Shown here piece by piece: positions 1-35,039 of a stretch of DNA of 36,031 bases. The stretch comes from a virus. Where the stretch lies: positions 1 through 36,031 of IMG/VR virus record IMGVR_UViG_3300029893_000039. One strand, given 5' to 3'. Position 1 is the stretch's first letter. Each line of letters opens with the position of its first letter. A model generated the notes under the pieces. That model was not told the origin of the DNA and did no database searches. It saw only the letters and a program-made list of their open reading frames with translations. The position numbers were made by a program, and so were the translations under genes.

Positions 1-44
1 CGAATCTGCACCACTCGCCGAAGCTGCACGACTCGCCGAAGCTG
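1..44. repeat. Contig-end overlap: nt 1-44 identical to nt 35988-36031 (circular-assembly signature)
   Basis: cgaatctgcaccactcgccgaagctgcacgactcgccgaagctg is read at both ends. Joining the ends with this overlap keeps the minus-strand repeat ORF in frame (340 + 410 nt = 750 nt). Confidence 0.85.
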
Positions 45-238
45 CACCCAGCGCCGAAGCGGCACGACTCGCCGAAGCGGCACGACTCGCCGAAGCGGCA
101 CGACTCGCCGAATCTGCACCACTCGCCGAAGCTGCACGACTCGCCGAAGCGGCACGACTCGCCGAAGCGGCACGACTCGCCGAAGCTGCACCCAGCGCCG
201 AAGCTGCACGACTCGCCGAAGCGGCACGACTCGCCGAA
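1..238 (-). repeat. 18-bp tandem repeat array, left part (about 13 units), coding on the minus strand
   Basis: Units such as gcacgactcgccgaagct/gcacgactcgccgaagcg/gcacccagcgccgaagct/gcaccactcgccgaatct follow head to tail. On the minus strand each unit reads F-G-(E/A)-(S/G/W)-C-(S/R). Confidence 0.95.
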
Positions 239-340
239 TTTCTTGATCTGCGTGTAATCCCCAGTGGGGCAATCGCGCATACCATCAACAACCGGGAGGG
301 CATCAAACTCTGCTTGTGTGTATTTCTTCATTTCCGTCAT
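1..340 (-). CDS. Cys-containing hexapeptide-repeat protein, N-terminal part (ORF leaves the left edge and continues in frame at 36031..35578; about 249 aa in total)
   Basis: ATG at 340..338 with AGGAG 7 nt upstream (aggagaactgagATG). It reads MTEMKKYTQAEFDALPVVDGMRDCPTGDYTQIKK followed by FGESCR/FGESCS/FGAGCS/FGEWCR units. There is no stop before position 1. Confidence 0.7.
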   Translation of the reverse strand, partial: MTEMKKYTQAEFDALPVVDGMRDCPTGDYTQIKKFGESCRFGESCSFGAGCSFGESCRFGESCRFGESCSFGEWCRFGESCRFGESCRFGESCRFGAGCSFGESCSFGEWCRF

Positions 341-341
341 C

Positions 342-749
342 TCAGTTCTCCTGCATGGCGGCGAGCGTGTCGTACAGATCGTCTGCATCGGTGAACACCG
401 AATATGCCTTCTCTGGAGTATCCATGTATGTGAACCTGTCGTCGTGCAGATGGTTGTAGTCACACCCGGTTTGGACGCATGTCACTTTCCCGCTTGACTC
501 GTGGTATTTCAAGTACGTAGGTCCGCCATGCATGGGTAAAACAGAGGCGGCTTCTTGCCACATATCAGGTCCACTGAAGCGGCTGAAATGCGGATGCTCT
601 GGAAAGATGTAGGCATACACACACCATCCGTGCTGCCCGTCATAAGAGCCTGACCTATTGATGCGATGACGGGATATCTCCACAGTGAAATTTTTCCCGC
701 GTCGCACCCAAAGTTCTTTGTGCTCCCATTTGGAAAAGTCAGTTGGCAT
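342..749 (-). CDS. Hypothetical early protein (135 aa), His/Cys/Trp-rich
   Basis: Track ORF 342..899 trimmed to ATG 749, which is preceded by GGAGAG. It reads MPTDFSKWEHKELW... and contains HGWCVYAYIFPEHPHF and CVQTGCDYNHLHDD. No family recognised. Confidence 0.6.
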   Translation of the reverse strand: MPTDFSKWEHKELWVRRGKNFTVEISRHRINRSGSYDGQHGWCVYAYIFPEHPHFSRFSGPDMWQEAASVLPMHGGPTYLKYHESSGKVTCVQTGCDYNHLHDDRFTYMDTPEKAYSVFTDADDLYDTLAAMQEN

Positions 750-5059: not shown

Positions 5060-7039
5060 ATGGCGCGGGAAGCGAGTCCCATCACACAACTGATACGCGA
5101 GCTGGAATCGGATTGGGCATTTACGCTCGACTTCCTGTTCTCGCATCGTCACCCGCAAGCGAGTCCTCCGTTCCATCGGCAGATCATCGATGCGTGGTTC
5201 TCAGATCACCCCGCCGTGCTGGTCGAAGTGTTCCGGGGAGGGGCGAAGTCCACCCGTGCTGAGGAAGCCATCTGTGTTGCCGCACTGTTCCAGTTGGCGC
5301 GCTATATCCTGATCGTCGGCAACACCTACAGCAGCGCGTGTGAGCGGCTTGCGTCCATTCGGCTTGAACTCGAAAACAACGAAAAGATCAACGGGATATT
5401 CCGTTACACCAAGGGCGCAACGTGGACGGAGAACCTGATCCAGTTGAGTAATGGGGTCATCATCCAGGCGTTCGGGGCGAACCAGTCTGTTCGGGGTACA
5501 AAGAACCCGGCGAATAACGCGCGGCCTGATCTGGTGCTGATTGACGACTTTGAAGATCGTGACAGCGTGGCGACGCCGGAGGCCAGGAGAAAGGTGAGCC
5601 AGTGGTTCACGCGGGAGCTTAAACCGGCGCTAGACCCATCGGCGCGCATCCGTGTGAACGGGACGCCTCTGCACGCGGACAGCGTTATCGAGCAGTTCAA
5701 GCAAGACCCGACGTGGCAGGTGTTGTCGTTCCCGCTCTACACGGTAGATGGCGACACCAAAGTGCCCATGTGGAACGAGAGGTTCCCGTTGGCATGGATT
5801 GAGGCCAAGCACGACGAGTTCAAGGCAAACGGCGACCTCGCAGGGTTCAGCCAGGAATATCTCTTGAAGCCCATGAGCGACGCGGCGAGCGTCTTCGCGC
5901 GTTCGGACTTTCAGGTCATCGACCCGGCGTTTTCACGTGTGGACTTCGCGCCACGCATTCTCGTGGTTGACCCGGCACGGACGACAAACCAGCGCACGAG
6001 CGCCCGCACGGGATACGCGGTGGGCTCATGGGTGGGCAACGAGCTGTACGTGCATGAGGCGACAGGACACTTCCACTCGCCGTTCGAGCAGGTCGCGCAC
6101 ATCTTCCACCTTGCGCAGATTTACCAACCCATGACCGTCGCAGTCGAGGAAGACGGCTTGAACCAGTGGCTGTTGCAGCCATTGAGGGCGGAGATGAGCT
6201 GCCGTGGCGACATCATTCCGCTACAGCCTGTGCGCGCCCCACGCGACAAGGATAACTTCATCAAGGGTCTGCAACCGTTCTTCCAAGCCAAGGAAGTGCG
6301 GTTCATGAAGCCGATGCCCGACCTGGAGGCAGAACTGCTGGCATTCCCCTTAGGGCGCAAGGACGTGGCTAACGCGCTGGCCTACCTGCTACGTCTGCGT
6401 CCCGGGATGCCGGTATATGCCAACTTCAAGGCAGAGCATATCCAGCACAGGGCGCCCTCGCAGCGGGCGGACTGGTTTCTGTTCATCAACGCCACGGCGG
6501 GTATGCTGCAAGCCGTTCTTGCATTCGCGCAGGACGGGGCGGTACATGTGGCGAGAGATTGGGTGCTCGAAGGGTCTCTGGACGACTCCTTGCGCGCAGT
6601 ATTCCTGTCAGCAAGCCATGAGATGCCCAGCGGCAAGCGCCCGGTGCTGTTCGTCCCGGCGGACAGGGTGCTACAGAACGACGGGTCGGGTCTGCCGACG
6701 ACGCTCAAGCGTATGGCCGTCGAGTTCCGTCAGGGCAAGAGAACGGTGGAGGCACAGGAATGCCTTGACACGCCCATGCGCATGAAGCGGGGGGTAACGC
6801 CTCTGCTGACGGTAAGCCCGGAGGCGACATGGACGCTCAACGCGCTGGCGGGAGGCTATTGCCGTGACCCAGGGACGACGTCATTCTCCATACGCGACAC
6901 AATCCACAAGCATGTGGCGCAGGCGCTGGAATCGGGGTATGCTGCCATCAGTAACTTCGCGCTGGACAACGAGGACGCGCAGGATGTGGTGTGGGCGAGA
7001 AGTGACACAGGGCGCAGGTTCATATCCATGCGGAGGTAA
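5060..7039 (+). CDS. terL: Terminase large subunit (659 aa)
   Basis: RBS is GAGGA. The sequence contains a Walker A-like FRGGAKST and a Walker B-like PDLVLIDDFED. It sits immediately before the portal gene. The C-terminal 200 aa or so lie beyond the usual nuclease domain and are unassigned. Confidence 0.85.
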   Translation: MAREASPITQLIRELESDWAFTLDFLFSHRHPQASPPFHRQIIDAWFSDHPAVLVEVFRGGAKSTRAEEAICVAALFQLARYILIVGNTYSSACERLASIRLELENNEKINGIFRYTKGATWTENLIQLSNGVIIQAFGANQSVRGTKNPANNARPDLVLIDDFEDRDSVATPEARRKVSQWFTRELKPALDPSARIRVNGTPLHADSVIEQFKQDPTWQVLSFPLYTVDGDTKVPMWNERFPLAWIEAKHDEFKANGDLAGFSQEYLLKPMSDAASVFARSDFQVIDPAFSRVDFAPRILVVDPARTTNQRTSARTGYAVGSWVGNELYVHEATGHFHSPFEQVAHIFHLAQIYQPMTVAVEEDGLNQWLLQPLRAEMSCRGDIIPLQPVRAPRDKDNFIKGLQPFFQAKEVRFMKPMPDLEAELLAFPLGRKDVANALAYLLRLRPGMPVYANFKAEHIQHRAPSQRADWFLFINATAGMLQAVLAFAQDGAVHVARDWVLEGSLDDSLRAVFLSASHEMPSGKRPVLFVPADRVLQNDGSGLPTTLKRMAVEFRQGKRTVEAQECLDTPMRMKRGVTPLLTVSPEATWTLNALAGGYCRDPGTTSFSIRDTIHKHVAQALESGYAAISNFALDNEDAQDVVWARSDTGRRFISMRR

Positions 7040-7040
7040 G

Positions 7041-7130
7041 ATGGAACCGGTCTGGATTTTCGGTGGTGTTGTCGTAAGTGTGCTCAGGGTTATCATGGCG
7101 GCATTTCTACTTCTGATCGCCCCACTGTGA
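7041..7130 (+). CDS. 29-aa hydrophobic micro-ORF between terL and portal
   Basis: GGAGG lies 4 nt upstream of the ATG. It reads MEPVWIFGGVVVSVLRVIMAAFLLLIAPL*. Its TGA overlaps the GTG at 7127 as GTGA. Confidence 0.35.
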   Translation: MEPVWIFGGVVVSVLRVIMAAFLLLIAPL

Positions 7131-9232
7131 CTATGGACGAGGACAAGACCATCGACGAGGAGCCCGAATACGTCGGCAAGCGTGACGTGCTGGAGCAGGC
7201 GCAAGAGGTTTACCGCGATGTGGTGGACGGCTTCCTCGCCCGCGCGGATCGCGACCGCGACATTGCCAAGTTTTGGGAAATCTACGACTGCAAGCTCAGC
7301 GATGAGCAGGCTTACGCCGGGAAGTCCAAGATTTTTGTTCCTGCGGTGCGCGATGCCATCGAGGCGCGCACCCTACGGTTCAGCAATGCGCTATTCCCCA
7401 GTAGTGGGCGGTATGTCGAGTGCATTTCATCGACGGACGACACGGCACGCGCGCTCAAGGCGCTACAGAACCACTATGTGCGCGCGGCGCGGCTGCGTGA
7501 GATTGTCACCAGCATGCTGCGTGCAGGCGACGTGACGGGGCAATACAGCTTGTACGTGGACTGGCAGACACGCGCACGCAAGATTATTGAGCGTCAGAGC
7601 GTGCCTGTGACACTGCCCACGGGCGAGACGGTGCCGGGCACCACCATCGAGATCGAGAAAGAAGTTGAGATCGAGACGGGGCTACCTGACATTTGGGTGC
7701 TGGCGGATCAAGACCTTGTGGTGCTGCCCGCAACGGTGGATACCATTGACGATGCAGATGTGGTGGCCGTCGCTTTGCGTGTGACGAAAACGTGGCTACG
7801 CGAGCGCAAGGATCAGTTTCAGCCCAAGCAATACAAGAAGGCGATGGCTCTGCTATCGAACAACGGGGCTGACAAGAAGGACAACCCCAACCACCCCGAG
7901 GATGCCAAGCGCGCGGCCAAGGAAGCAGGCGTGCGCAGCGACAAGGGCACAAAGCACTTGCTGCTCTACCAGGTGTGGTGCTCACTCAAGATCGACGGGG
8001 AGCACACACCGGCGTACTTCCTCGCGTTCGGCCCTGATGACTTCTTGACCATCAAGAAAAACCCATTTTGGGGGCAGCGGCCCCCAGTCATCTCCGCGCC
8101 GGTCAAGAAAGTACCGGGAAGCTTTTGGGGTGTGAGCCCCATTAAGTCGGTCGCGCAGCTACAGTATCAGGTTAACGACGCGATCAACATGGGTATGGAC
8201 GCGGCGCAGTACGCCCTTGCGCCTATCGTGATGACAAACCCGGAGAAGAACCCGCGTGTGGGCTCTATGGTGCTGGAGATGGCCGCTGTATGGCAGACCA
8301 GCCCGCAGGACACGCAGATTCTGGAGTTCCCCAAGCTGTGGCAGGATGCGCTGACCCTCGTGGGCGCGGCAAAGGCACAGATTCAGGAATCGTTTGGCCT
8401 TAACCCGGCAATGATGCCCATGGGCGGTGCGCCCGCGCGCAAGCCGACGCAGGCACAGGTCGCCATGGAACAGCAGATCACGCTGGAAGCCATCAGCGAC
8501 AGTGTTCGGGTGCTGGAATCGTTCGTGCTAACGCCGACCGTGGAGCGCATATTCGAGTACGACCAGCAGTTCCGAGACAAAGAAACGACCATTGAGCATT
8601 TTGGTGAGCTGGGATACGAGGCCGAGATGGAGCGTGTTCCGCCTGTGCAGTGGGGTACGCGGTATCGGTTCGTCTGGAACGGTGTACAGCGCATGCAGAA
8701 CGCGCAGAACGTGCAGCAGATGATCGCTGCGATGAACGTGTTACGCGGTATCCCACCGCAGCAGTTGGGTGGCCGCGTGCTGGACATCGGCCCCATCCTT
8801 GACCAAATGGTAGACACCGTGTTTGGGCCTCGCCTTGGAAGTCAGATTCTTAAAAGCGCGCGGGACAGCATGAGCATCGACCCGCAGATTGAGAACGAAA
8901 TGCTCTCACAGAACATGCCAGCGGCCCTATCACCGTTGGACAACGACGCCGAGCATATTCAGGTGCACCATGCTGGGGCTATGCAGACTGGCGACCCACA
9001 TCATCAGTTTGCCGCGCACATCATGGCGCACCAGCAGCAGATGCAGCGCAAGGCGCAAGCAGCCGCGCCGCAAGGCGCGCCGGGCATCCCCGGCGGGGCA
9101 GGTCCTGGCGTTCCAGGCACGCCAAGACCTGGCGGTCAGGCCGTTGGCCCGCGTGGTGTCGCACAGCAACCGGCGGGTGCCGTTCATCCGGACCAGATGC
9201 ACGCGCCGGGTGTGATGCCTAGAAAGCTCTGA
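7127..9232 (+). CDS. Portal protein (about 700 aa) with a Pro/Gly/Ala/Gln-rich C-terminal tail
   Basis: Assigned from size and position after terL. The start is either GTG 7127 (GTGA coupling) or ATG 7133, and neither has an SD. The C-terminus reads QAAAPQGAPGIPGGAGPGVPGTPRPGGQAVGPRG... Confidence 0.8.
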   Translation: MTMDEDKTIDEEPEYVGKRDVLEQAQEVYRDVVDGFLARADRDRDIAKFWEIYDCKLSDEQAYAGKSKIFVPAVRDAIEARTLRFSNALFPSSGRYVECISSTDDTARALKALQNHYVRAARLREIVTSMLRAGDVTGQYSLYVDWQTRARKIIERQSVPVTLPTGETVPGTTIEIEKEVEIETGLPDIWVLADQDLVVLPATVDTIDDADVVAVALRVTKTWLRERKDQFQPKQYKKAMALLSNNGADKKDNPNHPEDAKRAAKEAGVRSDKGTKHLLLYQVWCSLKIDGEHTPAYFLAFGPDDFLTIKKNPFWGQRPPVISAPVKKVPGSFWGVSPIKSVAQLQYQVNDAINMGMDAAQYALAPIVMTNPEKNPRVGSMVLEMAAVWQTSPQDTQILEFPKLWQDALTLVGAAKAQIQESFGLNPAMMPMGGAPARKPTQAQVAMEQQITLEAISDSVRVLESFVLTPTVERIFEYDQQFRDKETTIEHFGELGYEAEMERVPPVQWGTRYRFVWNGVQRMQNAQNVQQMIAAMNVLRGIPPQQLGGRVLDIGPILDQMVDTVFGPRLGSQILKSARDSMSIDPQIENEMLSQNMPAALSPLDNDAEHIQVHHAGAMQTGDPHHQFAAHIMAHQQQMQRKAQAAAPQGAPGIPGGAGPGVPGTPRPGGQAVGPRGVAQQPAGAVHPDQMHAPGVMPRKL

Positions 9233-9241
9233 CGAATCTGA

Positions 9242-9269
9242 TTGACATTTTCAGTACCTGCGCTATATT
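9242..9269 (+). promoter_or_regulatory. Near-consensus sigma70 promoter (TTGACA-N16-TATATT) upstream of scaffold and capsid genes
   Basis: Reads aTTGACAttttcagtacctgcgcTATATTg in the 106-nt portal-scaffold gap. Confidence 0.55.
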
Positions 9270-9338
9270 GCGCGAAACTCGAGCGACTCCCGTAAGGAGT
9301 TATTCGACTTGTGGCCGTAAGCACACTCAGAGGACAGT

Positions 9339-10110: not shown

Positions 10111-11448
10111 ATGGCTACCAATAACGCCTCCAACTTTGCTTCAGACATTGGCAAGTTCATTCAGAAAAAGACTCTGGAACTGACCCAACGTCAAATCGTC
10201 GTTTCGCAGATCGCGGAACGTGTTGACCTCCCGCGCGGCATGGGTACTTCCTATTACGCGTTCCGTTATGAGCGTGTCCCCCTTCCGTACACGACGCTGG
10301 CCGAAGGCGTTCCTTCGTCCGGCGAAACGATGACCATCACGCAGGTGACTGGCACCGTTGCGCAGTGGGGCGACCTGATCCGCATCACGGATGTGGCGGA
10401 AATGACGATCTACCACCCCGTGTTCAAGAAGGCCATCGAACTTGTTGGCTACCAAGCCACGGAAACCATCGAGCGAAATACCTTCAATGCGATCATGGGT
10501 GGCACGCAGGTCAACTATGTTGGCTCCGTGGGCGCTCGCGCTTCGCTGACTTCTAGCTCCGTCCTGACACCGCACGAACTCAACCGTGCGGCGGGAACCC
10601 TGTTCACCAACGGCGCCCGGTACTACGAGTCTGGCGGCGGCGCAGACATGAAGATGAAGGCTGCGAGTGGCGCGAGAGGCGTTACCCCCGCTGCCGCGCC
10701 GCACTATGTAGCCGTCATCCACCCGTTGGTCGAGCAGGATTTGCGCGAGAACAGCGCCGTGGTCGTTGCATGGCAATATAGCGACATTGGCAAGCTGTAT
10801 AACGCCGAGATCGGTCAGTGGTCGGGTATTCGCTTCACCCGTTCGAACATGGTTCCATCGTGGACTGGCATGGCTGCGGTTAACGGAACCGCTGGGACTG
10901 CTGGCTCGCTGGCAACGGCGACGTATTATGTTCAGGTCACTGCGGCTGATGCGAATACCCAATACGAGACTCGGGTGTACCAAGTTTCGGCGGGGATCAG
11001 CGTCACTGGCCCGAACGGCTCGATCAGCGTTACGGTGCCGTCTACTACTGGCTACACGTACAACGTGTACGTCGGCACGACCACCAGCCCTGCGAACCTC
11101 GGTCTGTCTGCCTCTGGCCCGACGACTGGGCCGCTGTCTGGCAATTCGACCCAGCTAGCTCCCGGAACGACTGCTGTCATCACTGGTATTGGCGTCTCGC
11201 AGACCCCGCCTGCGGCTCCCGCTACCGGAGTGACCGTGTACCCCACGTTCATCTTCGGCAAGGAATCGTTCGCACAGGTCGATCTGTCCTCACTGGAGAC
11301 GTTCTACCTGACTGGCGCAGATAAGTTCGACCCTCAAAACCAGACCCGTGTGGTTTCGTGGAAGGTTTTCTACGGCACGATGATCATGAACAATCAGTTC
11401 TTCATGCGCATCGAATCGTCGTCGGCCTTCTCCCCGACCTTCGGTTAA
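10111..11448 (+). CDS. Major capsid protein (445 aa), N4-gp56-like, with a T/G/S/V-rich insertion
   Basis: It follows the scaffold gene. The N-terminal pattern ...LPRGMGTSYYAFRYERVPLPYTTLAEGVPSSG...WGDLIRITDVAE... resembles N4-type capsid proteins, a family assigned from memory. A strong hairpin follows the gene. Confidence 0.75.
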   Translation: MATNNASNFASDIGKFIQKKTLELTQRQIVVSQIAERVDLPRGMGTSYYAFRYERVPLPYTTLAEGVPSSGETMTITQVTGTVAQWGDLIRITDVAEMTIYHPVFKKAIELVGYQATETIERNTFNAIMGGTQVNYVGSVGARASLTSSSVLTPHELNRAAGTLFTNGARYYESGGGADMKMKAASGARGVTPAAAPHYVAVIHPLVEQDLRENSAVVVAWQYSDIGKLYNAEIGQWSGIRFTRSNMVPSWTGMAAVNGTAGTAGSLATATYYVQVTAADANTQYETRVYQVSAGISVTGPNGSISVTVPSTTGYTYNVYVGTTTSPANLGLSASGPTTGPLSGNSTQLAPGTTAVITGIGVSQTPPAAPATGVTVYPTFIFGKESFAQVDLSSLETFYLTGADKFDPQNQTRVVSWKVFYGTMIMNNQFFMRIESSSAFSPTFG

Positions 11449-25067: not shown

Positions 25068-25232
25068 ATGCAGAAGGACGCGGCAACCAGCGTCATCGGC
25101 ATGAGCATCAAGGCCGATGAGAGCCGCTTCCGCGTACAAAGCGAGTCAGCTATCGTCGCTATTTTGCAGGAGGTTCGGGCGTTGAAGGCACCGACACAGC
25201 CTGCAATCGAGGTTCAAGCGGCTTCCTCCTGA
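25068..25232 (+). CDS. Possible small protein at the 3' end of the late arm (54 aa from ATG 25068; the frame is open from 24951 without a canonical start)
   Basis: The protein-like sequence EDKPNERLTRLVGKSLRKLEQILDIEPSPWDSDYVKLLAMQKDAATSVIGMSIKADESRFRVQSESAIVAILQEVRALKAPTQPAIEVQAASS* begins exactly at the ATP-grasp stop. The only ATG is at 25068, and it has no SD. Confidence 0.3.
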   Translation: MQKDAATSVIGMSIKADESRFRVQSESAIVAILQEVRALKAPTQPAIEVQAASS

Positions 25233-27700
25233 ACTTCGGGCATTTCCATATCCAGCTTTGTCGTGTCAATTTCCACGCATGTGGTCTGCCCCTGCGGGGG
25301 AAGGCCAACAGCCCCGCGTGTGATGGTAATGCGGCGCTCACCGAACATCACGCCAAGCCGTGTCAGCTCGGCGCGGAACTCGCTCCAGTCCATGCGATAG
25401 GTCAACACATACCGGCGCAGCGAGCGCAGGTCGATGAATAGGTGTTTCGTTGCCTTCTCGTAGCGCATCAAATAAGGCGCTTTGGTGTGCGCGATGAGCA
25501 TCACGACGTTCTGGTCATTCGTCTGAATGCAGTGGTCGATGTTGTCGTTGATATAGTGGGTCAGAACCTCCTCAATGGAGATGCCGAACGACCGGGCATG
25601 ACTGCGAGCGGCGACGATCAGCCCTTTGCCAAACTGATAGACCGCGCCCAGGTCAACTTCGAGTTGCAGGCACTTGTTGAGGATCGCGCCCATGGTGACA
25701 GCGGCGGCAACCATGTTCACGCGAATGCGTTCTTCCGTGCTAGCGCGCAAGTCCTCTTGCAACTTGCTCTTGGCCTTCTCCAGCTCACGAGCGATAACCT
25801 CTTGATGATCTACGAGGTACTGTGCCAGCATGTGCCCAGCAGCCCCGGCATTGGCAAGTGTCTCGCGCTTCATGGCGTCACCATCCTGGAACTTGGTGTT
25901 TTCCGGCAGGTACATGCGCATCTCCAGCACGCGGAAGGCTTCGGCCACAGACCCCACATCGAGCAACTTCTCCAGGATGGGCGCATTACTGGAACTGGTC
26001 AGGATAGTGTGCCACTCAGGCGCCATCTCGCGCATGCCGCCTGAGCGATCTAGGCGGCGCTTGTCACGGCCTTCTGATACGTCATAGGCCAGGACGGCGA
26101 GCTTCTCCGCGCTGAGTTTCGTCAGTTCCTCGGCCTGCACTGGAAGGTTGTGCATGATGGACAGGAACACGATGCGGGCGTTCTCCGTGTCCTGCGCCTT
26201 GCTGAACGCTGCTTCGACATTCCCGAACACGCTAGCGACCGCAGCCTGCACCGTGGACTTTCCCTGGCCGGATGGGCCAACAATGGAGAACACGCCACCA
26301 CGCTCGCCCGTCAGGTGCATCAGCACGGCGGCCAGCGACATGACAAAAGCGAACCGCTGCAAGTCGTTGTGCATCAGAGGCTGCACTGCCTGTGACCATG
26401 CCTGCCATGTGCCTTGCAATGGCATATAGCGGGCTAAGTTCGCCGCATGGCTTTCCAGATGGACGTAGTGGGGGTTCTCACCGCGCTTGTAAATGCGGTT
26501 GCCAATCAAGAACGAGCCATCGGGCTGCCATCCAAATTGCTTATAGCTTTGCATCACTTTCTGATCCTTCTCTAGTTTTTCCTTGCTGGATATGAGAAAC
26601 TGCTTTACCGCAGCCAACTTGCGCCCCGTGCAGGAAATGCCGATGTTGTTAAGCCAGACCTCGCAGTCCTTGGCAATCTGTTGCATGGTCAGCAGATGCT
26701 TGCTCTCTGTGCCGTTGCGAACTGTTACCTCGATGTACCGCTGTTCCTGAACACCTGGAAGTCGGACGACGTTGGTCACGGCCACGGCGTAGTCGAGCAA
26801 ATCTGACCAGCTCTCGCCATCTTCGGTGCCGACGGCCATCTGCAACTTTCCGCCCCGCAGCCGGAACCCTCCTGGCATGAACTCGTTCAGCCCTTCGGTT
26901 TCCTTGACGATAGGCTCTGGCTCGATGCCTGCGCGCTCCTTCTTGCGCAATATGTCCAGCACTTCCTGCTCATCCAGCGGCGGGTGGCAGTGGGCGACGT
27001 TGAATGCTAGTAGTTCGCGCTCAAGATCGTCTCCCTTCGCTCCGCTTTTAATCATCGCGTAGGCGGCGTTGCTGACATAGGTGTTGCGCCCACCTTGGGC
27101 GTGCATGCCAAGGGCCGCAGCGGCCAGCGATGAGGGTTTGACAGGCTGGTTACGCGGGGTAGCGCGTATCATGTCCAGCAGCCGCGCCGGGAACACGGGC
27201 AAGTCCCCCAGCGGCTGCAAGCCATTCAGCCAGTGGTATTCCCACTCGTCGCCAGCATCGTCCACAACGCGGCTGGGCGGCAGGACATCCTGACCACCGG
27301 CTGCGCGCAGCTCGAACCCATGCGCATGCAAAGGGATCGTGCGCAGACCCTCCGGGGCGCGGAACAACGCCTTCCAGCGGTTCGGGCGCCCGCTCGTCCA
27401 GCGCGGGACGCTCGTCTTGATCGTCTCCAGCGTAGATTCTGACAGCCCTTGCTGCGCCCACCAAGCCAGAAACCTCGGCTCGTCATCTACATCTAGACAG
27501 CATGTTCCGCTCAGGCCGTGGTTGATGCCGACGTTACCCGCATGCAGTTTCCCCAGATCGGTGCATCCTTTCCTCAGCCATCCTGATGTTCTTGGCCCCT
27601 TAGTGTGGGCCGGTATGGCGACAAGAGCCATACCCATTTGTAGGTATTGTTCGATCATGGTCGTAGTGGATGGGGGCGAGAACCCCCATCTTAGACTCAT
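25214..27700 (-). CDS. Primase-polymerase (AEP prim-pol N-domain) / P-loop helicase fusion (828 aa)
   Basis: The N-terminus LVAIPAHTKGPRTSGW...GINHGLSGTCCLDVDD is prim-pol-like. There is a Walker A motif IVGPSGQGKST. It overlaps the upstream gene as ATGA. Confidence 0.8.
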   Translation of the reverse strand: MSLRWGFSPPSTTTMIEQYLQMGMALVAIPAHTKGPRTSGWLRKGCTDLGKLHAGNVGINHGLSGTCCLDVDDEPRFLAWWAQQGLSESTLETIKTSVPRWTSGRPNRWKALFRAPEGLRTIPLHAHGFELRAAGGQDVLPPSRVVDDAGDEWEYHWLNGLQPLGDLPVFPARLLDMIRATPRNQPVKPSSLAAAALGMHAQGGRNTYVSNAAYAMIKSGAKGDDLERELLAFNVAHCHPPLDEQEVLDILRKKERAGIEPEPIVKETEGLNEFMPGGFRLRGGKLQMAVGTEDGESWSDLLDYAVAVTNVVRLPGVQEQRYIEVTVRNGTESKHLLTMQQIAKDCEVWLNNIGISCTGRKLAAVKQFLISSKEKLEKDQKVMQSYKQFGWQPDGSFLIGNRIYKRGENPHYVHLESHAANLARYMPLQGTWQAWSQAVQPLMHNDLQRFAFVMSLAAVLMHLTGERGGVFSIVGPSGQGKSTVQAAVASVFGNVEAAFSKAQDTENARIVFLSIMHNLPVQAEELTKLSAEKLAVLAYDVSEGRDKRRLDRSGGMREMAPEWHTILTSSSNAPILEKLLDVGSVAEAFRVLEMRMYLPENTKFQDGDAMKRETLANAGAAGHMLAQYLVDHQEVIARELEKAKSKLQEDLRASTEERIRVNMVAAAVTMGAILNKCLQLEVDLGAVYQFGKGLIVAARSHARSFGISIEEVLTHYINDNIDHCIQTNDQNVVMLIAHTKAPYLMRYEKATKHLFIDLRSLRRYVLTYRMDWSEFRAELTRLGVMFGERRITITRGAVGLPPQGQTTCVEIDTTKLDMEMPEVQEEAA

Positions 27701-28724: not shown

Positions 28725-29065
28725 TTGATGGTCAGTACGAATGTAGATTGCACCTCAGTGCCCGGTATTGCCTCGTTATCGTCAATCAGCCGCAGGGCTT
28801 CCGATGTGTCGATGCTGCGCTTGACGAGCGCGGGGTTCTGGGTGGCAAACGTGTCGAACGCATCCCAATCCACTACGCGCACGGTGCGCCGCAGGCTGGT
28901 GATGGCGTGCCCAGCTTCGGTCTTGGCTGACTTTAGCCCAGCGCCTTCTAACGCAAGCTGTATCTGTTGAGACAGCTCAGACATGCGGGACTTGAGGAGC
29001 GCATCTACCTTATCGCGCTCGTCGCGAACAGCCTTGTATTGCTCAATCAGGTTATTGAGTTCCAT
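28721..29065 (-). CDS. Hypothetical coiled-coil protein (114 aa)
   Basis: Track ORF that overlaps the SNF2 3' end by 14 nt. Confidence 0.55.
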   Translation of the reverse strand: MELNNLIEQYKAVRDERDKVDALLKSRMSELSQQIQLALEGAGLKSAKTEAGHAITSLRRTVRVVDWDAFDTFATQNPALVKRSIDTSEALRLIDDNEAIPGTEVQSTFVLTIK

Positions 29066-30626
29066 AACTTTCTCCGTTTACCCACGCCATAACTAAGTTT
29101 TGTAGGGACTGGCGTGCTTGGTTCCTACTGTAGATTGCATGCTCGATGGGGTCAACATAAAGATGCAAAATTCTGCTGTGGGATGTCTGCGAGGGGCGCT
29201 GAATGCGTGCGTTGGCCTGAACATAGGAGTCGCCCCCGTCAGCGGGCGAGTACCACACGATCGTGTTCGCCGCTGTGAGTGTCAGGCCGTGGCTCATCGT
29301 GCGCGGGTCTGCGACTAGCACGCGGGGGTCAGCTTCCTGCTGGAATGCCTTGAACGCCTGTGCGCGCTCTGCAAGCGGTGTCTCGCCGGTGATGACCTGC
29401 ACGCTGTAGTCCTTGCGCAAAGCGTCAGCCACACGTTTGACGACACTACTGAACGACGCAAACACAATAACCTTGCGGTCACACTCGTCGAGCACGTCCT
29501 TGAGGAGTGCCATGCGTGTGCTGGCGTCTACGTCATGGGCGACATGCTCTTTGTCGTACACGGCGCCCGCGAGGATTTGAAGTACCTTGAGTCGCAGCGC
29601 GCCCTCATGCACGGCAGTAATCTGCACGCCGCTACTTAGCACGAGCTGCATCTTCTTGCGCAGGCCGTCAAGCGCCGCCCGCTGCGCCGTCGTCATCTCG
29701 GCTTTGCGGAATTCATAGGTCGTGGGCGGCAAGTCGATGCACTCGTCACGCCGGAACCGGATAGCGGGCTGCATGAACTCACCCACGATCTTGTCTGAGT
29801 CACCCACAGGAACCCACTTGAATGCCGTCACTTGGCGCATGACCGTGTTGCGCCACGCACGGTTACTCATTGATGGCTTGACGATCAGCGCCTGCTGCCC
29901 CCATGCGTCGGTGGGCTCCTGCGGCGTAGGCGTACCCGTGTTGAGCCACACGAGCGGGTTGCCAAGGTCACGAATGGTGTTGCGGAGTGCCTTCCACCGC
30001 GCCGTGCTGGGATGGCGGTACTTGTGGCTTTCATCCACAATGATGAGCCCTATATCCCCCCGCCGAACGAGTGCCTCACGGACTGCATCAATCGTAAGCC
30101 CCTCGTTGTTGATAATGTAGTAGTCAGCATCCTGCTCTATGGCGGCCAAGCGTTGCTTGACACTTCCGTGCAGCACACTCGACCGCCTGCGGCCTGGCAA
30201 GTGCTCGCCGATGGCGTCTCGCCAGACGCTGTAGACAGTGGTCAGCGGCGCAACAATCAACACGCGCTTGACAACGTGCAGCCCCAGCAGAAAGTCACTC
30301 GCCCACAAGTTGCCGAGTGTCTTGCCGGTTCCTGGCTCACTCAGGTTGTGGCATCGCACATGCGTGGTCAGGAACCGGCACATCTCCACTTGGTGTGCCA
30401 TAGGCTTATCGATGGCCGGGCTGCGCGGCCAGTCATAACTCGTCTCGATAGGCGACTTGACCGGCAACCCAATACCCGCAGCGGCGATCTGTGCAATGAG
30501 GTTGACCGGCGCCACAACGGTGCCCATCACCACACGCGCGCCAGGGATGGCCTGCGCCACACGGTCGGGGTCAGGCAGGCCCGGCCAGCCAACCGAGTTA
30601 TGCTTTTGGCTGTAGAGCAATTGCAT
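29052..30626 (-). CDS. SNF2/RAD54-family helicase (about 524 aa)
   Basis: It contains LSEPGTGKT, the DExH box IIVDESHKYRH, and the C-terminal motifs LVADPRTMSHGLTLTAANTIVWYSP...QANARIQRPSQ. The start chosen is ATG 30626 (GGGAGA 6 nt upstream). The track start at 30698 is possible. Confidence 0.8.
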   Translation of the reverse strand: MQLLYSQKHNSVGWPGLPDPDRVAQAIPGARVVMGTVVAPVNLIAQIAAAGIGLPVKSPIETSYDWPRSPAIDKPMAHQVEMCRFLTTHVRCHNLSEPGTGKTLGNLWASDFLLGLHVVKRVLIVAPLTTVYSVWRDAIGEHLPGRRRSSVLHGSVKQRLAAIEQDADYYIINNEGLTIDAVREALVRRGDIGLIIVDESHKYRHPSTARWKALRNTIRDLGNPLVWLNTGTPTPQEPTDAWGQQALIVKPSMSNRAWRNTVMRQVTAFKWVPVGDSDKIVGEFMQPAIRFRRDECIDLPPTTYEFRKAEMTTAQRAALDGLRKKMQLVLSSGVQITAVHEGALRLKVLQILAGAVYDKEHVAHDVDASTRMALLKDVLDECDRKVIVFASFSSVVKRVADALRKDYSVQVITGETPLAERAQAFKAFQQEADPRVLVADPRTMSHGLTLTAANTIVWYSPADGGDSYVQANARIQRPSQTSHSRILHLYVDPIEHAIYSRNQARQSLQNLVMAWVNGESYGTQ

Positions 30627-30894
30627 CAAGCATCTCCCGTACTGTGCTGGCACTGCGCGCCACGGATACCACGCCGCGCGCGTCGAGAATGGCGTCAATC
30701 TCGCGCTCCTGGTTGGGCGTAAGAATTCCCGTCTCGCTCTTTGCCTCTACGGCGAAGAACTGGCCCTTGTAGCAACCAATAAAGTCCGGTATCCCAGCGC
30801 GCCCATAGCCGTTCATGCTGGGCATGAAGTACCAGCAACCATATTCCTTGAGGACACGCTTAATGGCATCCTTCACTTTCGCCTCGGGGGTCAT
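30598..30894 (-). CDS. VRR-NUC domain nuclease (98 aa)
   Basis: It contains ...GRAGIPDFIGCYKGQFFAVEAKSETGILTPNQ... (PD...ExK). Track ORF trimmed to ATG 30894 (RBS GGAG, ATGA overlap). Confidence 0.7.
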   Translation of the reverse strand: MTPEAKVKDAIKRVLKEYGCWYFMPSMNGYGRAGIPDFIGCYKGQFFAVEAKSETGILTPNQEREIDAILDARGVVSVARSASTVREMLDAIALQPKA

Positions 30895-31106
30895 TGCACG
30901 GATACTCCGACGCCTTCCTTGACAGCCGTGATAGCGCCTTCCAAGAGCTGCACCATCATCTCGTTGACCTTCTCGCCACTGGCGTTGCATCGCACGCTCA
31001 GGCGTCCGTTGCCGTGGTAATCCACAACGACCGTCACGAGGGGACGCTCAACGTCATCGGATATGGTTTGCGCCGGTGTGGCCGGGATCAGACTGTTCAG
31101 GCTCAT
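30891..31106 (-). CDS. Hypothetical protein (71 aa)
   Basis: Track ORF trimmed to ATG 31106 (RBS AAGGAG, ATGA overlap). Confidence 0.55.
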   Translation of the reverse strand: MSLNSLIPATPAQTISDDVERPLVTVVVDYHGNGRLSVRCNASGEKVNEMMVQLLEGAITAVKEGVGVSVQ

Positions 31107-31753
31107 ACGATCTCCTTGGGGTAGAACTTGCACTTGTGGGCGCTGCACCAGTTGCACAGCGGTGTGGGCTTCGGTGCCCACCGGTCATCTGCTTCGATCT
31201 GCGCGATAAGCCGCGCGATTTCGGCTTGCACTGCGGCGACGTTGCACCGCTCATATTCGGTTTGCTTGCCGATCTTGCCCGTGGTCAGATAGACGTTGAA
31301 GCTGGTCAGCTTCTCGACATCGGGGAATGCCGCGAACACGGCAACTGCATAGCAGTCATGCTGCAACGAATCCTCGCGGGGCTTGCCGGTTTTCCAGTCC
31401 ATGACCACGGCGCGCTTACCATCGTCGCTTATCAGCAGAACATCCAGCTTGGCAATAAAGCCCTTGGCTGGGCGCGTCAACGAGAATGCGAACTTCTCGG
31501 TCAAGTAGATGGTCTGCTCGATGCGGGCATTCTTGATCCTGTCACGAACGGAGGAGATGGAAGTCTCATAAACCTCCATGTGCTTAGGCAGCGGCTGGCG
31601 CTGCTTCAACGCTGTCTCAATGGCCTCGTGAACTTCGGTTCCCGCAGCGGCTTCCTTGCCCTGGTACGGTAGCGTGTCCTTGGCCTTGTATTTGCGGAAG
31701 AACTGCTGCGGGCAGTTGCGGTAGCAGTTGAGGCTGCTGTAGGAATAGATCAC
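31103..31753 (-). CDS. Cas4/RecB-like PD-(D/E)XK exonuclease with an Fe-S Cys cluster (216 aa)
   Basis: It contains an N-terminal NCYRNCP, then KLDVLLISDDGKRAVVMDWKTGKP and LQHDCYAVAV (QhxxY), and a C-terminal CNWCSAHKC. Confidence 0.75.
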   Translation of the reverse strand: MIYSYSSLNCYRNCPQQFFRKYKAKDTLPYQGKEAAAGTEVHEAIETALKQRQPLPKHMEVYETSISSVRDRIKNARIEQTIYLTEKFAFSLTRPAKGFIAKLDVLLISDDGKRAVVMDWKTGKPREDSLQHDCYAVAVFAAFPDVEKLTSFNVYLTTGKIGKQTEYERCNVAAVQAEIARLIAQIEADDRWAPKPTPLCNWCSAHKCKFYPKEIV

Positions 31754-31968: not shown

Positions 31969-32021
31969 GCATAGCTGACCGCGAACGCCACCAGCGTAAT
32001 AATCCAGAATACGCCGCTCAT
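31965..32021 (-). CDS. 18-aa hydrophobic micro-ORF coupling the polymerase to the next gene, speculative
   Basis: AAGGAG lies 8 nt upstream. It reads MSGVFWIITLVAFAVSYA*. There are ATGA overlaps at both ends. Confidence 0.3.
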   Translation of the reverse strand: MSGVFWIITLVAFAVSYA

Positions 32022-34633
32022 TTTGAATACTCCTTCGCATATCCACCTGCGCAGTCCAACGGTACACCTTCGGCATAATCTGGCGCGGAACGCATGACGG
32101 CCTGCGCAAAGCCGAGTGCGTCATCTGCTTCGTCCTCGCGGGCGAGAAACACAACTTCGTCGTGCGTCATCGTCGCCACTTGGTACTTCTGCGCGATGAC
32201 CAGCATCTGGTCGGCCACAATGTCACGCGCGATGGCTTGAACAATGTTTTCCACCAGCGATGCGCCATAGATGCGCTGTTTCGCACCGTACTCAAACCCG
32301 TCACTGGTCAACCGCAAGTCAGGATACGATAGCCAGCGGCCCGAGGGCAAGCGAAGTTTTTGGTAGGATGTCACGATGCCGTGCTGCCAGTCGATGCGCT
32401 CTTCTTGCATCATGGCGCGCAGCATACGATCCGCGCTGCGCCACAGTGCGCGGATTGCAGTGTATGTGCTCCGGTAGGTTGCTACATACCCTGCCGCGTC
32501 GTCAAGCGTCGTGCTTGGTTGCTTGAGAGCAATCTGCGCGTGCAACTTGACGTGGCCGACGCCATACCCAAGTCCGAGAATGCAGTTATGAACAATCACT
32601 GGACCCAAGTCCGTCATCACCGTAAACCGATGGTTCGGACCGCAGTTGAGCAGATCGTAGACTGGCAATTTCTCGCTCAAGCGCAAGGATTCGTTGCGAC
32701 AAGTCGTTAGCTTTTCTGCGGGTGGCGATGTTTTCTTTTCGGGTGACAAACCTGACGTTCCCTGGAGCGTAAGGCCCGTCAACATTGATCCGGTCAAGCT
32801 CAAGCTCTGGAACATCCCACCCTGGAATGGTTTGTATGTACCGAAGAAACGCTGATCGGTCATCTCTCCATTCTTGGCAGACATAAATTCCTCGCTCGCC
32901 ATAACTCGAAAAGGCTGCGTTCCGAGGGTTGTGGCACCGGCCAATGCACGAGGATAGGCGGTTAAGCAGCCGTGTGCGGTGCCCGTCATCCGCGAGCGCG
33001 TCCTTATATTTCCAGTATCGTTTTTTGCTGGCAGCGACTTTCGCGCACGCGTTGCAGCGAGTAGACCTCCCAGATAGGAGATTGTGCCGGTCAACCATCC
33101 CTTCGTTCCCGCAAGAGCATCTGACATACGGGTGCCACCCAGCCATTTGCCCGCTTGATGGGCGAACCATCGGACGCCAGTCGAGGATGGTAAGGTCGCC
33201 GTAAACAGCGCCGACGCTAGCAGGGAACGGTTTTTGAGGACCTCTGACCACTCCGCCCATCCATGTTCCGTCAGGATTTCGTGGTCCGAAGTAGCGTTTA
33301 CGCCGATCCCCCGCAATGTTGGTTTCAGGCCCTGAAACCTCACGCCGCCATGCTTTACCCATGATTCTCCATCCCACACCAAGTCCGTTTCCTTGACCCG
33401 AATAATAGGCTTCCAGCCATTGTTGGTCAAGACTTTGGTGTTGGCTGCTAGGCACGTCTTGCCGACGAAGCGCCGCGCGTCGTCAATCTGCTGCCCAGGC
33501 CAGATTCGCATGGCGAACCGAACGTACACGTCGTCGCCATCAGCGAACTGCTGGAGCAACTCATTCTCTCCCGCCAGCCACGCGAGCACGCGCGCCTCGA
33601 TCTGCGACGAGTCCACAACCACCAGGACATATCCCTCAGGTGCCGTTAGACACTTGCGCAGCGCAGACCCACGGTTGAGATTCTGCATGTTGACGCCGTC
33701 CCATCCAGACCATCGCCCCGTATGCGCCCCGTGATACTTGAGCGGCACAGGCATGACGCCACGTCCAGCCACACCGATGAACTTCTGCGTGCGACGCAGC
33801 TCGGACACGCTCTTAGCTGCAAGCCTTCCGCGCACTAGATGCCCCACATGGGGGTTCTCCAGCAACGCCAGGAAGTCAGTGTCTGTCTTGCGGAAAGTTC
33901 CGGGCACAGCCACGCCATGCGCTGCGAGGACGGATGCGAACTGCGGATTGCTCATCAGCACGCTTTCAAGCACGCCAGCCGAGGCAATAGCTTCATCGCG
34001 CTGCGCCTCAAGCTCAGCCATCCGGTCGTGCAATAAACGTGCATTGACTTCCAGCACCGGCTCGGTGAACAGACGTGTAGTGAGGTCGATCAGCGCCAAC
34101 TCGCGCGCCGCGCGCACGCCGCCCAACGTTGTGACCATGTCCGCGCTCAGGCGCTTGTATAGCTTGCGCAGCAGGTTCACGTCCTGCACGCAATACTCGG
34201 CAAGTTGCTGTTCCAGCAGAGGGTCAAGATCACGCACACCCAGCGTCTTCGCTAGAGCGTCACCTTTGGCGCCCAGGTCGTAATGCTCGGAGAGAGCGGC
34301 CAGTGTATGCTTGCCGTGGTAACGCACGATGCGGCTCATAGCCAGCGTGTCATGGGTGCGCTTTGGCGCGACACCGAAGCGCCAGGACAGGATTGCCATG
34401 TCGAACGGCGCGTTGTGAGCAACCCATATAGCCCCGGGATGCTCGCTATGCAACGCTGACAGCGCAGACTGCACTTGCGCAGGTGGAACCCAATATGGTG
34501 TTGTGTCGTCCACGGCAATGCTGACGCCATGCACCTTGAACCGCTCGTCACGGATGTATTCTTCCGTGCTCATTTTGGTGAGCGAGTACGCACGGTCATA
34601 GTAGGTTTCGAAGTCGATGTAGATAGTCGTCAT
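32018..34633 (-). CDS. Family-A DNA polymerase with 3'-5' exonuclease domain, interrupted by an intein (871 aa precursor)
   Basis: Exonuclease motifs are IYIDFETYYD, WVAHNAPFDMAIL and EYCVQDVNLL. Motif A is VVVDSSQIEARVLAWLAGE. Motif B is split as RRFVGKT / intein / CILGLGYGVG. The start is ATG 34633 (GGAG 8 nt upstream, ATGA overlap) rather than the track start at 34735. Confidence 0.9.
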   Translation of the reverse strand: MTTIYIDFETYYDRAYSLTKMSTEEYIRDERFKVHGVSIAVDDTTPYWVPPAQVQSALSALHSEHPGAIWVAHNAPFDMAILSWRFGVAPKRTHDTLAMSRIVRYHGKHTLAALSEHYDLGAKGDALAKTLGVRDLDPLLEQQLAEYCVQDVNLLRKLYKRLSADMVTTLGGVRAARELALIDLTTRLFTEPVLEVNARLLHDRMAELEAQRDEAIASAGVLESVLMSNPQFASVLAAHGVAVPGTFRKTDTDFLALLENPHVGHLVRGRLAAKSVSELRRTQKFIGVAGRGVMPVPLKYHGAHTGRWSGWDGVNMQNLNRGSALRKCLTAPEGYVLVVVDSSQIEARVLAWLAGENELLQQFADGDDVYVRFAMRIWPGQQIDDARRFVGKTCLAANTKVLTNNGWKPIIRVKETDLVWDGESWVKHGGVRFQGLKPTLRGIGVNATSDHEILTEHGWAEWSEVLKNRSLLASALFTATLPSSTGVRWFAHQAGKWLGGTRMSDALAGTKGWLTGTISYLGGLLAATRARKSLPAKNDTGNIRTRSRMTGTAHGCLTAYPRALAGATTLGTQPFRVMASEEFMSAKNGEMTDQRFFGTYKPFQGGMFQSLSLTGSMLTGLTLQGTSGLSPEKKTSPPAEKLTTCRNESLRLSEKLPVYDLLNCGPNHRFTVMTDLGPVIVHNCILGLGYGVGHVKLHAQIALKQPSTTLDDAAGYVATYRSTYTAIRALWRSADRMLRAMMQEERIDWQHGIVTSYQKLRLPSGRWLSYPDLRLTSDGFEYGAKQRIYGASLVENIVQAIARDIVADQMLVIAQKYQVATMTHDEVVFLAREDEADDALGFAQAVMRSAPDYAEGVPLDCAGGYAKEYSK
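32585..33454 (-). mobile_element. Intein (290 aa) inserted in polymerase motif B
   Basis: In the polymerase frame, block A is CLAANTKVLTNNGWKPI and block B is GVNATSDHEILTEHGW. Blocks F and G are LPVYDLLNCGPNHRF...GPVIVHN, followed by the +1 Cys. Confidence 0.8.
32586..33455 (-). CDS. HNH/zinc-ribbon homing-endonuclease ORF in an alternative frame of the intein (289 codons open; plausible internal start ATG 33362)
   Basis: The alternative frame reads VYGDLTILDW...YVRCSCGNEGMVDRHNLLSGRSTRCNAC...IGRCHNPRNAAFSSYGERGIYVCQEW...ELDRINVDGPYAPGNVRFVTRKEN. GGAG lies 4 nt upstream of ATG 33362. The stop TAA is formed by the His-Asn codons cAT AAc. Confidence 0.6.
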   Translation of the reverse strand: MPSSQHQSLDQQWLEAYYSGQGNGLGVGWRIMGKAWRREVSGPETNIAGDRRKRYFGPRNPDGTWMGGVVRGPQKPFPASVGAVYGDLTILDWRPMVRPSSGQMAGWHPYVRCSCGNEGMVDRHNLLSGRSTRCNACAKVAASKKRYWKYKDALADDGHRTRLLNRLSSCIGRCHNPRNAAFSSYGERGIYVCQEWRDDRSAFLRYIQTIPGWDVPELELDRINVDGPYAPGNVRFVTRKENIATRRKANDLSQRILALEREIASLRSAQLRSEPSVYGDDGLGSSDCS

Positions 34634-34776
34634 GCGCGCCGCTCCACAGTCTTGTCGAGCAGCCAGCCGGTGCGCGTCATGCGAACCATCTGCACACCGC
34701 GTAACCAGCGTACTTGCAGGGTTCGTGTCGGCCAAAGCCTGCGCGCATCATGGCGCAGCGTCATCAGTGATTTCAT
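34630..34776 (-). CDS. Small basic protein (48 aa)
   Basis: RBS is GGAGAAAG. It reads MKSLMTLRHDARRLWPTRTLQVRWLRGVQMVRMTRTGWLLDKTVERRA*. There are ATGA overlaps at both ends. Confidence 0.4.
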   Translation of the reverse strand: MKSLMTLRHDARRLWPTRTLQVRWLRGVQMVRMTRTGWLLDKTVERRA

Positions 34777-35039
34777 GCTTTCTCCTTCGCTTGTCGAACC
34801 CACAACACGGCAGCTGCGGGCCGTTGAACATCTAAATGGCTTCCTACTGCATACAGGGCGACTATCTTGCTTCCCCGCATGCGGTAGTCCGCGATATACA
34901 CGGCTTTGGCACGGTGCAGCCTGCGCATCGCGTTCGCCACGCTCGCCGGGTTGGCCTTGATGTCGTCTGCGATGTCTGGCACGCACTTGGCACCATGCGT
35001 CAGCATGTGCTGCACTATTTTGTCAACAATGGTCATCAT
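34773..35039 (-). CDS. Winged-helix DNA-binding protein (88 aa)
   Basis: It reads MMTIVDKIVQHMLTHGAKCVPDIADDIKANPASVANAMRRLHRAKAVYIADYR..., which is MarR/wHTH-like. Confidence 0.55.
   Translation of the reverse strand: MMTIVDKIVQHMLTHGAKCVPDIADDIKANPASVANAMRRLHRAKAVYIADYRMRGSKIVALYAVGSHLDVQRPAAAVLWVRQAKEKA

Follow-up and report, generated by a model that had tools for sequence, protein, structure and literature searches.

A widespread phage protein family with an in-frame variable array of F-G-x-x-C hexapeptides, predicted to form a capped beta-helix stalk

We analysed a 36,031-nucleotide stretch of viral DNA (IMG/VR record IMGVR_UViG_3300029893_000039, positions 1 to 36,031; hereafter the window) and found that a gene divided between its two ends encodes a protein of 249 amino acids (aa), in which 22 near-identical F-G-x-x-C-[S/R] hexapeptides (hexads) connect an N-terminal cap to a C-terminal alpha/beta domain. 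The window is a phage genome, and the protein belongs to a large phage and prophage family that is not rare and is uncharacterised; the full-text literature searched contained no description of it. We consider it somewhat better than an even chance (roughly 55%) that the protein is a cytoplasmic, non-enzymatic early accessory protein with a capped beta-helix fold, consisting of a stalk of variable length and a C-terminal binding head. The structural half of this explanation is reasonably supported, and its functional half is what we infer. New here are the unusually pure Phe/Cys core, the extreme in-frame variation in rung number and a C-terminal domain outside Pfam and the solved structures, the left-handed beta-helix (LbH) kind of repeat being already known; nothing that we found contradicts current knowledge.

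The complete gene became visible upon joining the window ends, which share a single exact overlap of 44 bp (1-44 = 35988-36031) located within an 18-bp tandem array. Tandem Repeats Finder (TRF) reported this array at the left end (1-238; 13.2 copies, 87% matches, score 350) and at the right end (35826-36031; 11.4 copies, 84% matches, score 286). With one copy of the overlap removed, a single minus-strand open reading frame (ORF) runs from 340 to 1 and on from 35987 to 35578, whereas keeping the overlap breaks the frame into two ORFs. Its 249 codons comprise a 34-aa N-terminus, 22 hexads at residues 35-166, and an 83-aa C-terminal part that includes VRAGCFVGTLDEF. The features of the joined gene are as follows:

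347-352, minus strand: Shine-Dalgarno sequence AGGAGA, 6 nt upstream of the ATG at 340 (sequence reading)
239-340, minus strand: N-terminal cap (N-cap), codons 1-34 (MTEMKKYTQAEFDALPVVDGMRDCPTGDYTQIKK), with the ATG at 338-340 (joined ORF)
1-238, minus strand: hexads 1 to ~13, the N-terminal part of the predicted solenoid (TRF, unit table)
35830-35987, minus strand: hexads ~14 to 22, the C-terminal part of the predicted solenoid (TRF, unit table)
35581-35829, minus strand: C-terminal alpha/beta domain, codons 167-249 (FEGNRK...VRAGCFVGTLDEFRAKV...ERIEK), followed by the stop at 35578-35580 (AlphaFold2 [AF2], PHROG 20532/7964)
35988-36031, no strand: terminal duplicate of bases 1-44, dropped once to close the circle and hold the frame (exact overlap)

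The joined ORF bears out the single coding frame, the three-part build and the 34-aa N-terminus that an initial annotation had proposed from the letters of the window. Its estimate of about 22 hexads becomes exactly 22, with all eight hexad types that it had named present, while the C-terminal part, put there at about 77 aa, counts 83 aa. The array is built from nine different 18-bp units (arranged as ABCAABDAAACBDAEFGCFDHI), with a mean unit identity of 86% and one codon per conserved residue (TTC for Phe in 22/22 units, TGC for Cys in 22/22, GGC for Gly in 21/22). Of the three residues that had been called invariant, Phe and Cys are so to the very codon, whereas Gly holds in 21 of the 22 hexads; the exception, FSESCS, departs at position 2 from the hexad rule [LIVF]-[GAED]-x2-[STAVC]-x, to which the other 21 adhere strictly. 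As the closing 44-mer recurs within the self-similar array, with one-mismatch near-copies at 109-152 and 35862-35905 and a longest exact internal repeat of 63 bp, the number 22 is the simplest consistent count and provisional rather than a measurement. The protein contains 25 Cys among its 249 residues and a single His, which lies in the C-terminal domain and not in residues 35-166. Its isoelectric point (pI) is 5.5, within a family range of 4.2-9.1, and the solenoid carries a net charge of -6 over 132 aa.

Searching 5.8 billion proteins, we obtained 852 matches to the window protein, most of which span the whole query. The homologues that were sampled share the same succession of a common N-cap (MKKYTQxEFDAxPxVDGxxQCPxGDY), hexads and C-terminal domain, and among 52 homologues the N-cap residues T8, F12, G20, C24, P25, G27, D28 and Y29 are each conserved to at least 90%. 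In a set of 120 homologues, Phe fills hexad position 1 in 94%, Gly fills position 2 in 79% and Cys fills position 5 in 86%. A single-sequence scan of genome contigs recovered two loci only. At the DNA level, the arrays come in two kinds. Those of the window, L001, L002 and L008 are homogenised, with mean unit identities of 84-89% and Phe and Cys always written with one codon (the Gly codons of L001 and L008 are mixed GGC/GGT), whereas the array of L003 has diverged to 57% mean unit identity and uses TTT and TTC, GGC, GGT and GGA, as well as TGC and TGT, and that of L009, at 65%, likewise mixes synonymous Phe, Gly and Cys codons. Since the diverged arrays hold the F-G-x-x-C pattern via synonymous codons, this pattern is under selection at the level of the protein, which excludes a pure DNA-level element or artefact.

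The same observations bear on the broader proposal that the array is mainly a DNA-level element, for example origin iterons as in the lambda O gene, or an assembly artefact, with its translation incidental. Such a view would account for 22 near-identical 18-bp direct repeats in a replication arm and for a contig that breaks inside them and is closed by 44 bp only. We nevertheless regard it as barely credible, because hundreds of independent assemblies have the array in frame with the conserved N- and C-terminal domains, its peptide pattern survives in diverged arrays through synonymous changes, array lengths are always multiples of 18, and the phages that carry family members have replication modules unrelated to one another. 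A secondary role as iterons in this particular phage is conceivable.

The array is most likely a solenoid of the LbH type with a Phe/Cys core, its handedness and coil size being predicted from sequence. The window protein itself scores 27.5 bits against Pfam Hexapep (PF00132; cut-off 27.0), to which repeat bias likely contributes, and the A1 family profile matched, in the PDB, the LpxA-like chain 3t57 at an E-value of only 0.0047. Relatives with canonical repeats provide the connection to known folds. The homologue P0154 aligns with the window protein from end to end, N-cap to C-terminal domain (E 1e-55), and its middle region carries hexapeptide repeats of the ordinary kind, with Ile/Val/Met alternating with Phe and Ser/Thr/Ala with Cys. 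Hexapep scores rise to 45.6 bits for P0158 and 44.9 bits for TH2_184 of the Shewanella phage Thanatos-2, both of which have the C-terminal domain in common with the family; P0158, in which part of the N-cap motif is retained as well (PTGDYSAV), matches the solved structures of LpxA (4r36, E 1.4e-5) and GlmU (3twd, E 1.9e-5). From these relatives, we conclude that the F-G-x-x-C-[S/R] array derives from the LbH hexapeptide repeat and is an idealised form of it. The left-handed beta-helix reading under the hexapeptide rule, put forward in the initial annotation, thus gains sequence support, chiefly from these homologues, with the Hexapep score of the window protein lying at the threshold. In P0023, which is closely related to the window protein, Ser occupies every hexad position 5, indicating that the Cys serves as a small residue of the core rather than as a ligand.

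Compared with the LbH enzymes (PF00132; LpxA, LpxD, GlmU), the window protein shares the hydrophobic-Gly-x-x-small-x hexad rule, but where those enzymes have a mixed core of I/V/L with S/T/A/V, its own is near-uniform Phe/Cys. It also lacks loops, a catalytic His and an acyltransferase C-terminus, its N-cap and C-terminal domain are unrelated to theirs, its family varies from 1 to ~41 rungs, and the handedness of its array is a prediction only. These differences matter for the idea that the protein is a hexapeptide-repeat acyltransferase, as automatic names of its homologues imply (JGI and GenBank use names of the acyltransferase type, including 'acetyltransferase-like isoleucine patch superfamily enzyme'). 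Besides such names, the Hexapep score at the Pfam threshold and a weak match to NCBIfam LpxD (E 1e-7) favour an enzyme, but the latter reaches 31 bits against a cut-off of 242 bits, far under equivalog level. Moreover, the uninterrupted array has no substrate-binding loop, no His in its hexads and no conserved polar residue in the solenoid, intact alleles with one hexad cannot build an LbH active site, and the C-terminal domain is unrelated to acyltransferase C-termini, which together make an acyltransferase extremely unlikely.

Alternatively, the many Cys residues could point to a metal binder, be it an array of CCCH zinc fingers, a metallothionein-like protein or an Fe-S ladder. Pfam zf-CCCH_2 (PF14608) indeed scores 56 bits in 10 stretches, the Cys content is that of a Cys-rich protein (25 in 249 aa), and two homologues bear the NCBI name 'zinc finger CCCH domain-containing protein'. 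The zf-CCCH_2 stretches, however, are overlapping repeat stretches that offer C-x5-C spacing only and do not satisfy the Cys3His ligand set, and as the hexads contain no His, we take the match to be one of repeat composition. With the position-5 Cys replaced throughout by Ser in P0023 and by S, T, A or V in the canonical relatives, and with a C-S-F alternation along the strand that, given a buried Phe, would place the Cys in the core, metal binding is highly improbable. The public labels for this family (CCCH zinc finger, acetyltransferase, LpxD and acyl-carrier-protein) are wrong.

We found the number of hexads to vary widely within the family. The 120 best homologues carry approximately 5-28 hexads with a mode of 16-17, the longest array seen has ~41 diverged hexads (in identical 359-aa proteins from three IMG/VR samples, L013-L015), and intact proteins of 116-123 aa with a single hexad occur in several independent lineages (P0265 from a Hyphomicrobium metagenome-assembled genome [MAG], P0267, P0268, P0269, P0270 and P0272), such that the family ranges from 1 to ~41 hexads. 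Comparing copy number across relatives, as the initial annotation had advised, yielded within the window's own clade a series of 1 (P0265, P0268), 3 (P0266), 4 (P0018), 5 (P0006), 6 (P0023), 13 (P0001) and 22 hexads (the window). The array flanks of L002, which encodes P0006, are 84-98% identical in nucleotides to those of the window, yet its array is 17 hexads shorter. Where diverged arrays could be compared between samples, their copy numbers were equal (L011 versus L016/L017, L020 versus L022, and L013-L015), whereas copy number differs in the window's clade, in which the two arrays whose DNA was examined, those of the window and L002, are homogenised. Homogenised arrays with differing copy number are the outcome expected of slippage or unequal recombination. 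The recent expansion or contraction proposed earlier is therefore supported by the uniform conserved codons and by clade alleles of 1 to 22 hexads. The accompanying suggestion of a contingency locus, in the sense of phase variation, is not supported: near-identical units and copy-number differences among close relatives agree with it, but a frame-shifting on/off unit does not, as a change in the copy number of an 18-bp unit alters length and never frame, and all intact alleles are in frame. Hence, the array is an in-frame variable-number repeat and not a phase (on/off) switch.

Based on these properties, we propose the following mechanism. The 34-aa N-cap and the 83-aa C-terminal alpha/beta domain would form a conserved core with the solenoid in between, and within the solenoid, Phe at position 1 and Cys at position 5 would stack in the interior while positions 3, 4 and 6 would be exposed. 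Each 18-bp unit would then encode one structurally self-sufficient rung, and the near-identity of the units could allow slippage or unequal recombination to gain or lose rungs in frame. Function would reside in the N-cap and the C-terminal domain, most likely through binding of a host or phage factor, with the solenoid serving as a rigid stalk or spacer of variable length and possibly as a scaffold for trimerisation or oligomerisation, being neither a specific recognition surface nor a catalytic unit. The mild acidity (-6 over 132 aa), the variable exposed positions and the intact one-hexad alleles all argue against a DNA mimic, an enzyme or a specific recognition surface.

A DNA mimic, that is, a solenoid like Qnr, MfpA or anti-restriction mimics that blocks a DNA-binding host enzyme, was considered since a rod-like solenoid is encoded in an early arm and BFVD fold matches include phage pentapeptide-repeat proteins. 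We find this improbable, however, in view of the modest charge of the solenoid, the span of pI values in the family, a period of 6 and not the 5 of the A(D/N)LXX pentads of such mimics, and one-hexad alleles that are too short for the purpose. The exposed positions are variable as well: examining their periodicity at lags of 1-6 hexads, we found no conserved face-specific pattern, and the only signal, fewer like charges at position 3 between hexads three apart (z = -2.7), is marginal, being one of 18 tests.

Data on a distant family member with the same C-terminal domain, TH1_197 of the Shewanella phage Thanatos-1, address the location of such proteins. TH1_197 was detected by mass spectrometry in the polyethylene glycol precipitate of the lysate and was not detected in purified virions, while the baseplate proteins that flank it were present in both preparations (PMC7530303 Supplemental Table 3), indicating that the protein is expressed and not detectably associated with virions. 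This bears on a possible role as an accessory fibre of the virion or baseplate, for which one could cite the position of the Thanatos homologue between T4-like gp6 and gp7 baseplate genes and the frequency of beta-helices in tail spikes. Given that TH1_197 was not found in purified virions in which its flanking baseplate proteins were, and that the gene sits amid early or replication genes in the window, L001, L002, L003, L008 and L009, we deem a fibre very improbable indeed.

A host-takeover or anti-defence role is one that we purely infer, and PADLOC found no defence-system match for the target and five neighbours. As an unlikely, more specific version, the protein might belong to a new class of 'accordion' effectors, in which the N-cap and the novel C-terminal fold neutralise a host factor (e.g., an immune sensor or an LbH-binding partner) and the gain or loss of rungs tunes reach, avidity or escape; if so, variation in repeat number would be an arms-race mechanism in a cytoplasmic phage protein. 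More generally, if the length variation is adaptive, this phage accessory protein would offer an unusual intracellular case of in-frame repeat polymorphism. In any case, the 1 to ~41 tolerated rungs amount to a natural experiment on beta-helix modularity, which may interest protein designers.

Several points weigh against the explanation as a capped beta-helix with a variable stalk. From an alignment of 52 sequences, AF2 produced a two-residue strand every six residues, with a predicted local distance difference test (pLDDT) score of 81-94 by block over residues 11-120, but AF2 is known to over-predict confident beta-solenoids on near-perfect repeats (PMC11795689), and a Foldseek search of the full model against the PDB returned no LbH structure (best E 0.3), a result that 3Di repeat masking may explain and that is thus neutral on LbH. 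Because of the solenoid bias, the lack of an LbH chain by Foldseek and the uninspected coordinates, we give little weight to the AF2 model. Left-handedness and three hexads per turn are predictions, for which the marginal charge effect at a lag of three hexads is the single independent hint, and Phe at every inward position is unusual for an LbH. Regarding the variation in length, all copy numbers derive from short-read metagenome assemblies, at least one homologous gene (L027 2409-3243, ENA contig_60076) is split by a frameshift within its hexads, close to a G7 run at ~2852, and the one-hexad alleles could be decaying genes. As for function, no experimental or contextual clue points to a binding partner.

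The C-terminal domain, in which we suggest part of the function lies, is confidently folded when modelled alone with AF2 from 45 sequences (pLDDT 95.9), with four strands followed by two helices. It finds no significant counterpart in the PDB, neither by sequence (hmmsearch) nor by fold (Foldseek; best E 1.1, template modelling score at most 0.41), and Pfam searches at E <= 1 across 45 sequences of the domain gave no recurrent family. The window C-terminus matches PHROG 20532 (E 3.2e-8) and PHROG 7964 (E 1.1e-5), both of unknown function, and among 45 family members 42 match the former and 33 the latter. Of the structure prediction and profile search that had been proposed for this protein, the former gave a regular solenoid in the AF2 model, and the latter gave PHROG families only for the C-terminal domain. 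In an exhaustive profile search, 3,049 protein clusters (50% identity) proved to contain the domain, 1,089 with E <= 1e-10. Among the proteins listed it is mostly C-terminal, and those examined are solenoid proteins whose repeats are of the FGxxC, canonical Hexapep or YdcK type. Cultured phages that infect Firmicutes, Fusobacteria, Bacteroidetes and Proteobacteria also carry it, in every case labelled either hypothetical or, wrongly, acyltransferase. Its near-invariant residues are Gly, Phe, Val and Tyr, suggesting that the domain serves structure or binding and not catalysis. Widespread, confidently folded and without a Pfam model or solved relative, the domain is a good target for structural and functional work. 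One candidate for a free-standing copy, the 80-aa P0138, was the only one checked and turned out to be the 3' piece of the frameshift-split L027 gene, so we claim none. Gene callers report that gene as an N-terminal piece plus an 80-aa C-terminal domain, and other short matches may be fragments of the same sort.

Among the closest known systems are YdcK-repeat phage proteins (PF18836; e.g., P0171, P0184, P0263 and gp34 of Ruminococcus phage phiRM10), which have the same C-terminal alpha/beta domain after a hexad solenoid but differ in their N-terminal domain (KYELT...GDLGGYIE), in a repeat of the VYGNAxV type and in arrays that are not near-identical in DNA. PHROG 20532 and 7964 (C-terminal domain) and 5353 (repeat region) are direct hidden Markov model matches, and these clusters are annotated 'unknown function' without a description of architecture or repeat variation. 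A very regular solenoid with C-x5-C periodicity is also found in the Tenebrio molitor antifreeze protein TmAFP, a secreted beta-helix with 12-residue coils, Cys every 6 residues, a disulfide core and T-C-T ice-binding ladders. The window protein, by contrast, has no signal peptide and a predicted Phe core, and TmAFP was not among the PDB fold matches that Foldseek returned for the full model. Length variation within a gene for an LbH protein has a precedent of a different kind in neuO, which reportedly contains a variable tandem repeat with a 7-bp unit that switches the gene on and off and encodes an N-terminal extension outside the LbH. Its product, the polysialate O-acetyltransferase NeuO of prophage CUS-3, is likewise a prophage-encoded LbH protein (PMC3046976), but it is a true enzyme, whereas the unit of the window array is 18 bp, always in frame and itself the predicted solenoid.

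The genes around the target place it in the early (replication) arm, where the initial annotation had located it correctly. The plus strand of the window encodes the large terminase (5060-7039), the portal (7127-9232) and the major head protein (10111-11448), and the minus strand encodes a family-A DNA polymerase (32018-34735), an SNF2 helicase (29052-30698), a primase-polymerase with DUF927 (25214-27700), an exonuclease (31103-31753) and a RusA-like protein (2330-2893). The target gene is part of the minus-strand arm, where it is found two genes upstream of the polymerase amid small ORFs without a family match. A megablast search with 20 kb of the window against GenBank phages gave no match, and an exact look-up of three window neighbour proteins in an assembly index returned no record for any of them; L003, from a metagenome, is a syntenic relative whose homologue occupies the same position. 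The gene has small early or accessory neighbours in five unrelated phage backgrounds: the window, L001 (with a primase-polymerase module), L003, the Mu-like prophage L008 and the phage region L009, which contains YonV/YonJ-like genes and genes of the RNA-dependent RNA polymerase (RdRP) family. The two genes that adjoin the target are:

342-749, minus strand: upstream gene, 135 aa, no family match, with its stop at 342-344, one base before the target ATG
35228-35581, minus strand: downstream gene, 117 aa, with a signal peptide, whose ATG overlaps the target stop as ATGA at 35578-35581

The Shine-Dalgarno sequence 6 nt upstream of the target, the abutting stop of the upstream gene and the ATGA overlap downstream indicate a closely packed operon. 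The 117-aa downstream protein begins with the signal peptide MKAFLLALLLVASTAHA, followed by AEW, and has no match in Pfam, PHROG or PADLOC. In L002 (1452-1805), the gene immediately after the target homologue encodes a copy with 94% amino-acid identity, and in L006 (8249-8602) a closely similar 117-aa copy follows the target homologue. That the target and the 117-aa gene are paired in both L002 and L006, contigs that otherwise differ, suggests that the two genes form a mobile cassette. Apart from this signal-peptide protein, which is conserved in the window's clade, no neighbour was found to be conserved across phage backgrounds.

The L006 locus itself (7890-9295 on a 57-kb contig, JBAZYB010000003.1, of a Hyphomicrobium sp. 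MAG) is the closest relative in the genome collection, with 87% identity in the C-terminal domain and one hexad. There, after the target homologue and the signal-peptide protein comes a 227-aa protein, likewise with a signal peptide, which ends in TYTF-COOH and resembles an outer-membrane beta-barrel. This locus hints at an alphaproteobacterial host; the GC content of the window is 56-60%. Between the putative cassette and the polymerase, a 95-aa ORF (34773-35060, minus strand) weakly matches a Ren-like exclusion protein (PHROG 142, E 3e-4) and, also weakly, the Pfam helix-turn-helix domain HTH_9 (E 2e-3). Lastly, the window polymerase (905 aa, 32018-34735) apparently carries an inserted endonuclease-like segment: Pfam DNA_pol_A matches aa 236-427 only, PHROG 93 'endonuclease' matches aa 447-729, and polymerase PHROGs match again over ~720-905. 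The polymerase of L003 is of comparable length (873 aa).

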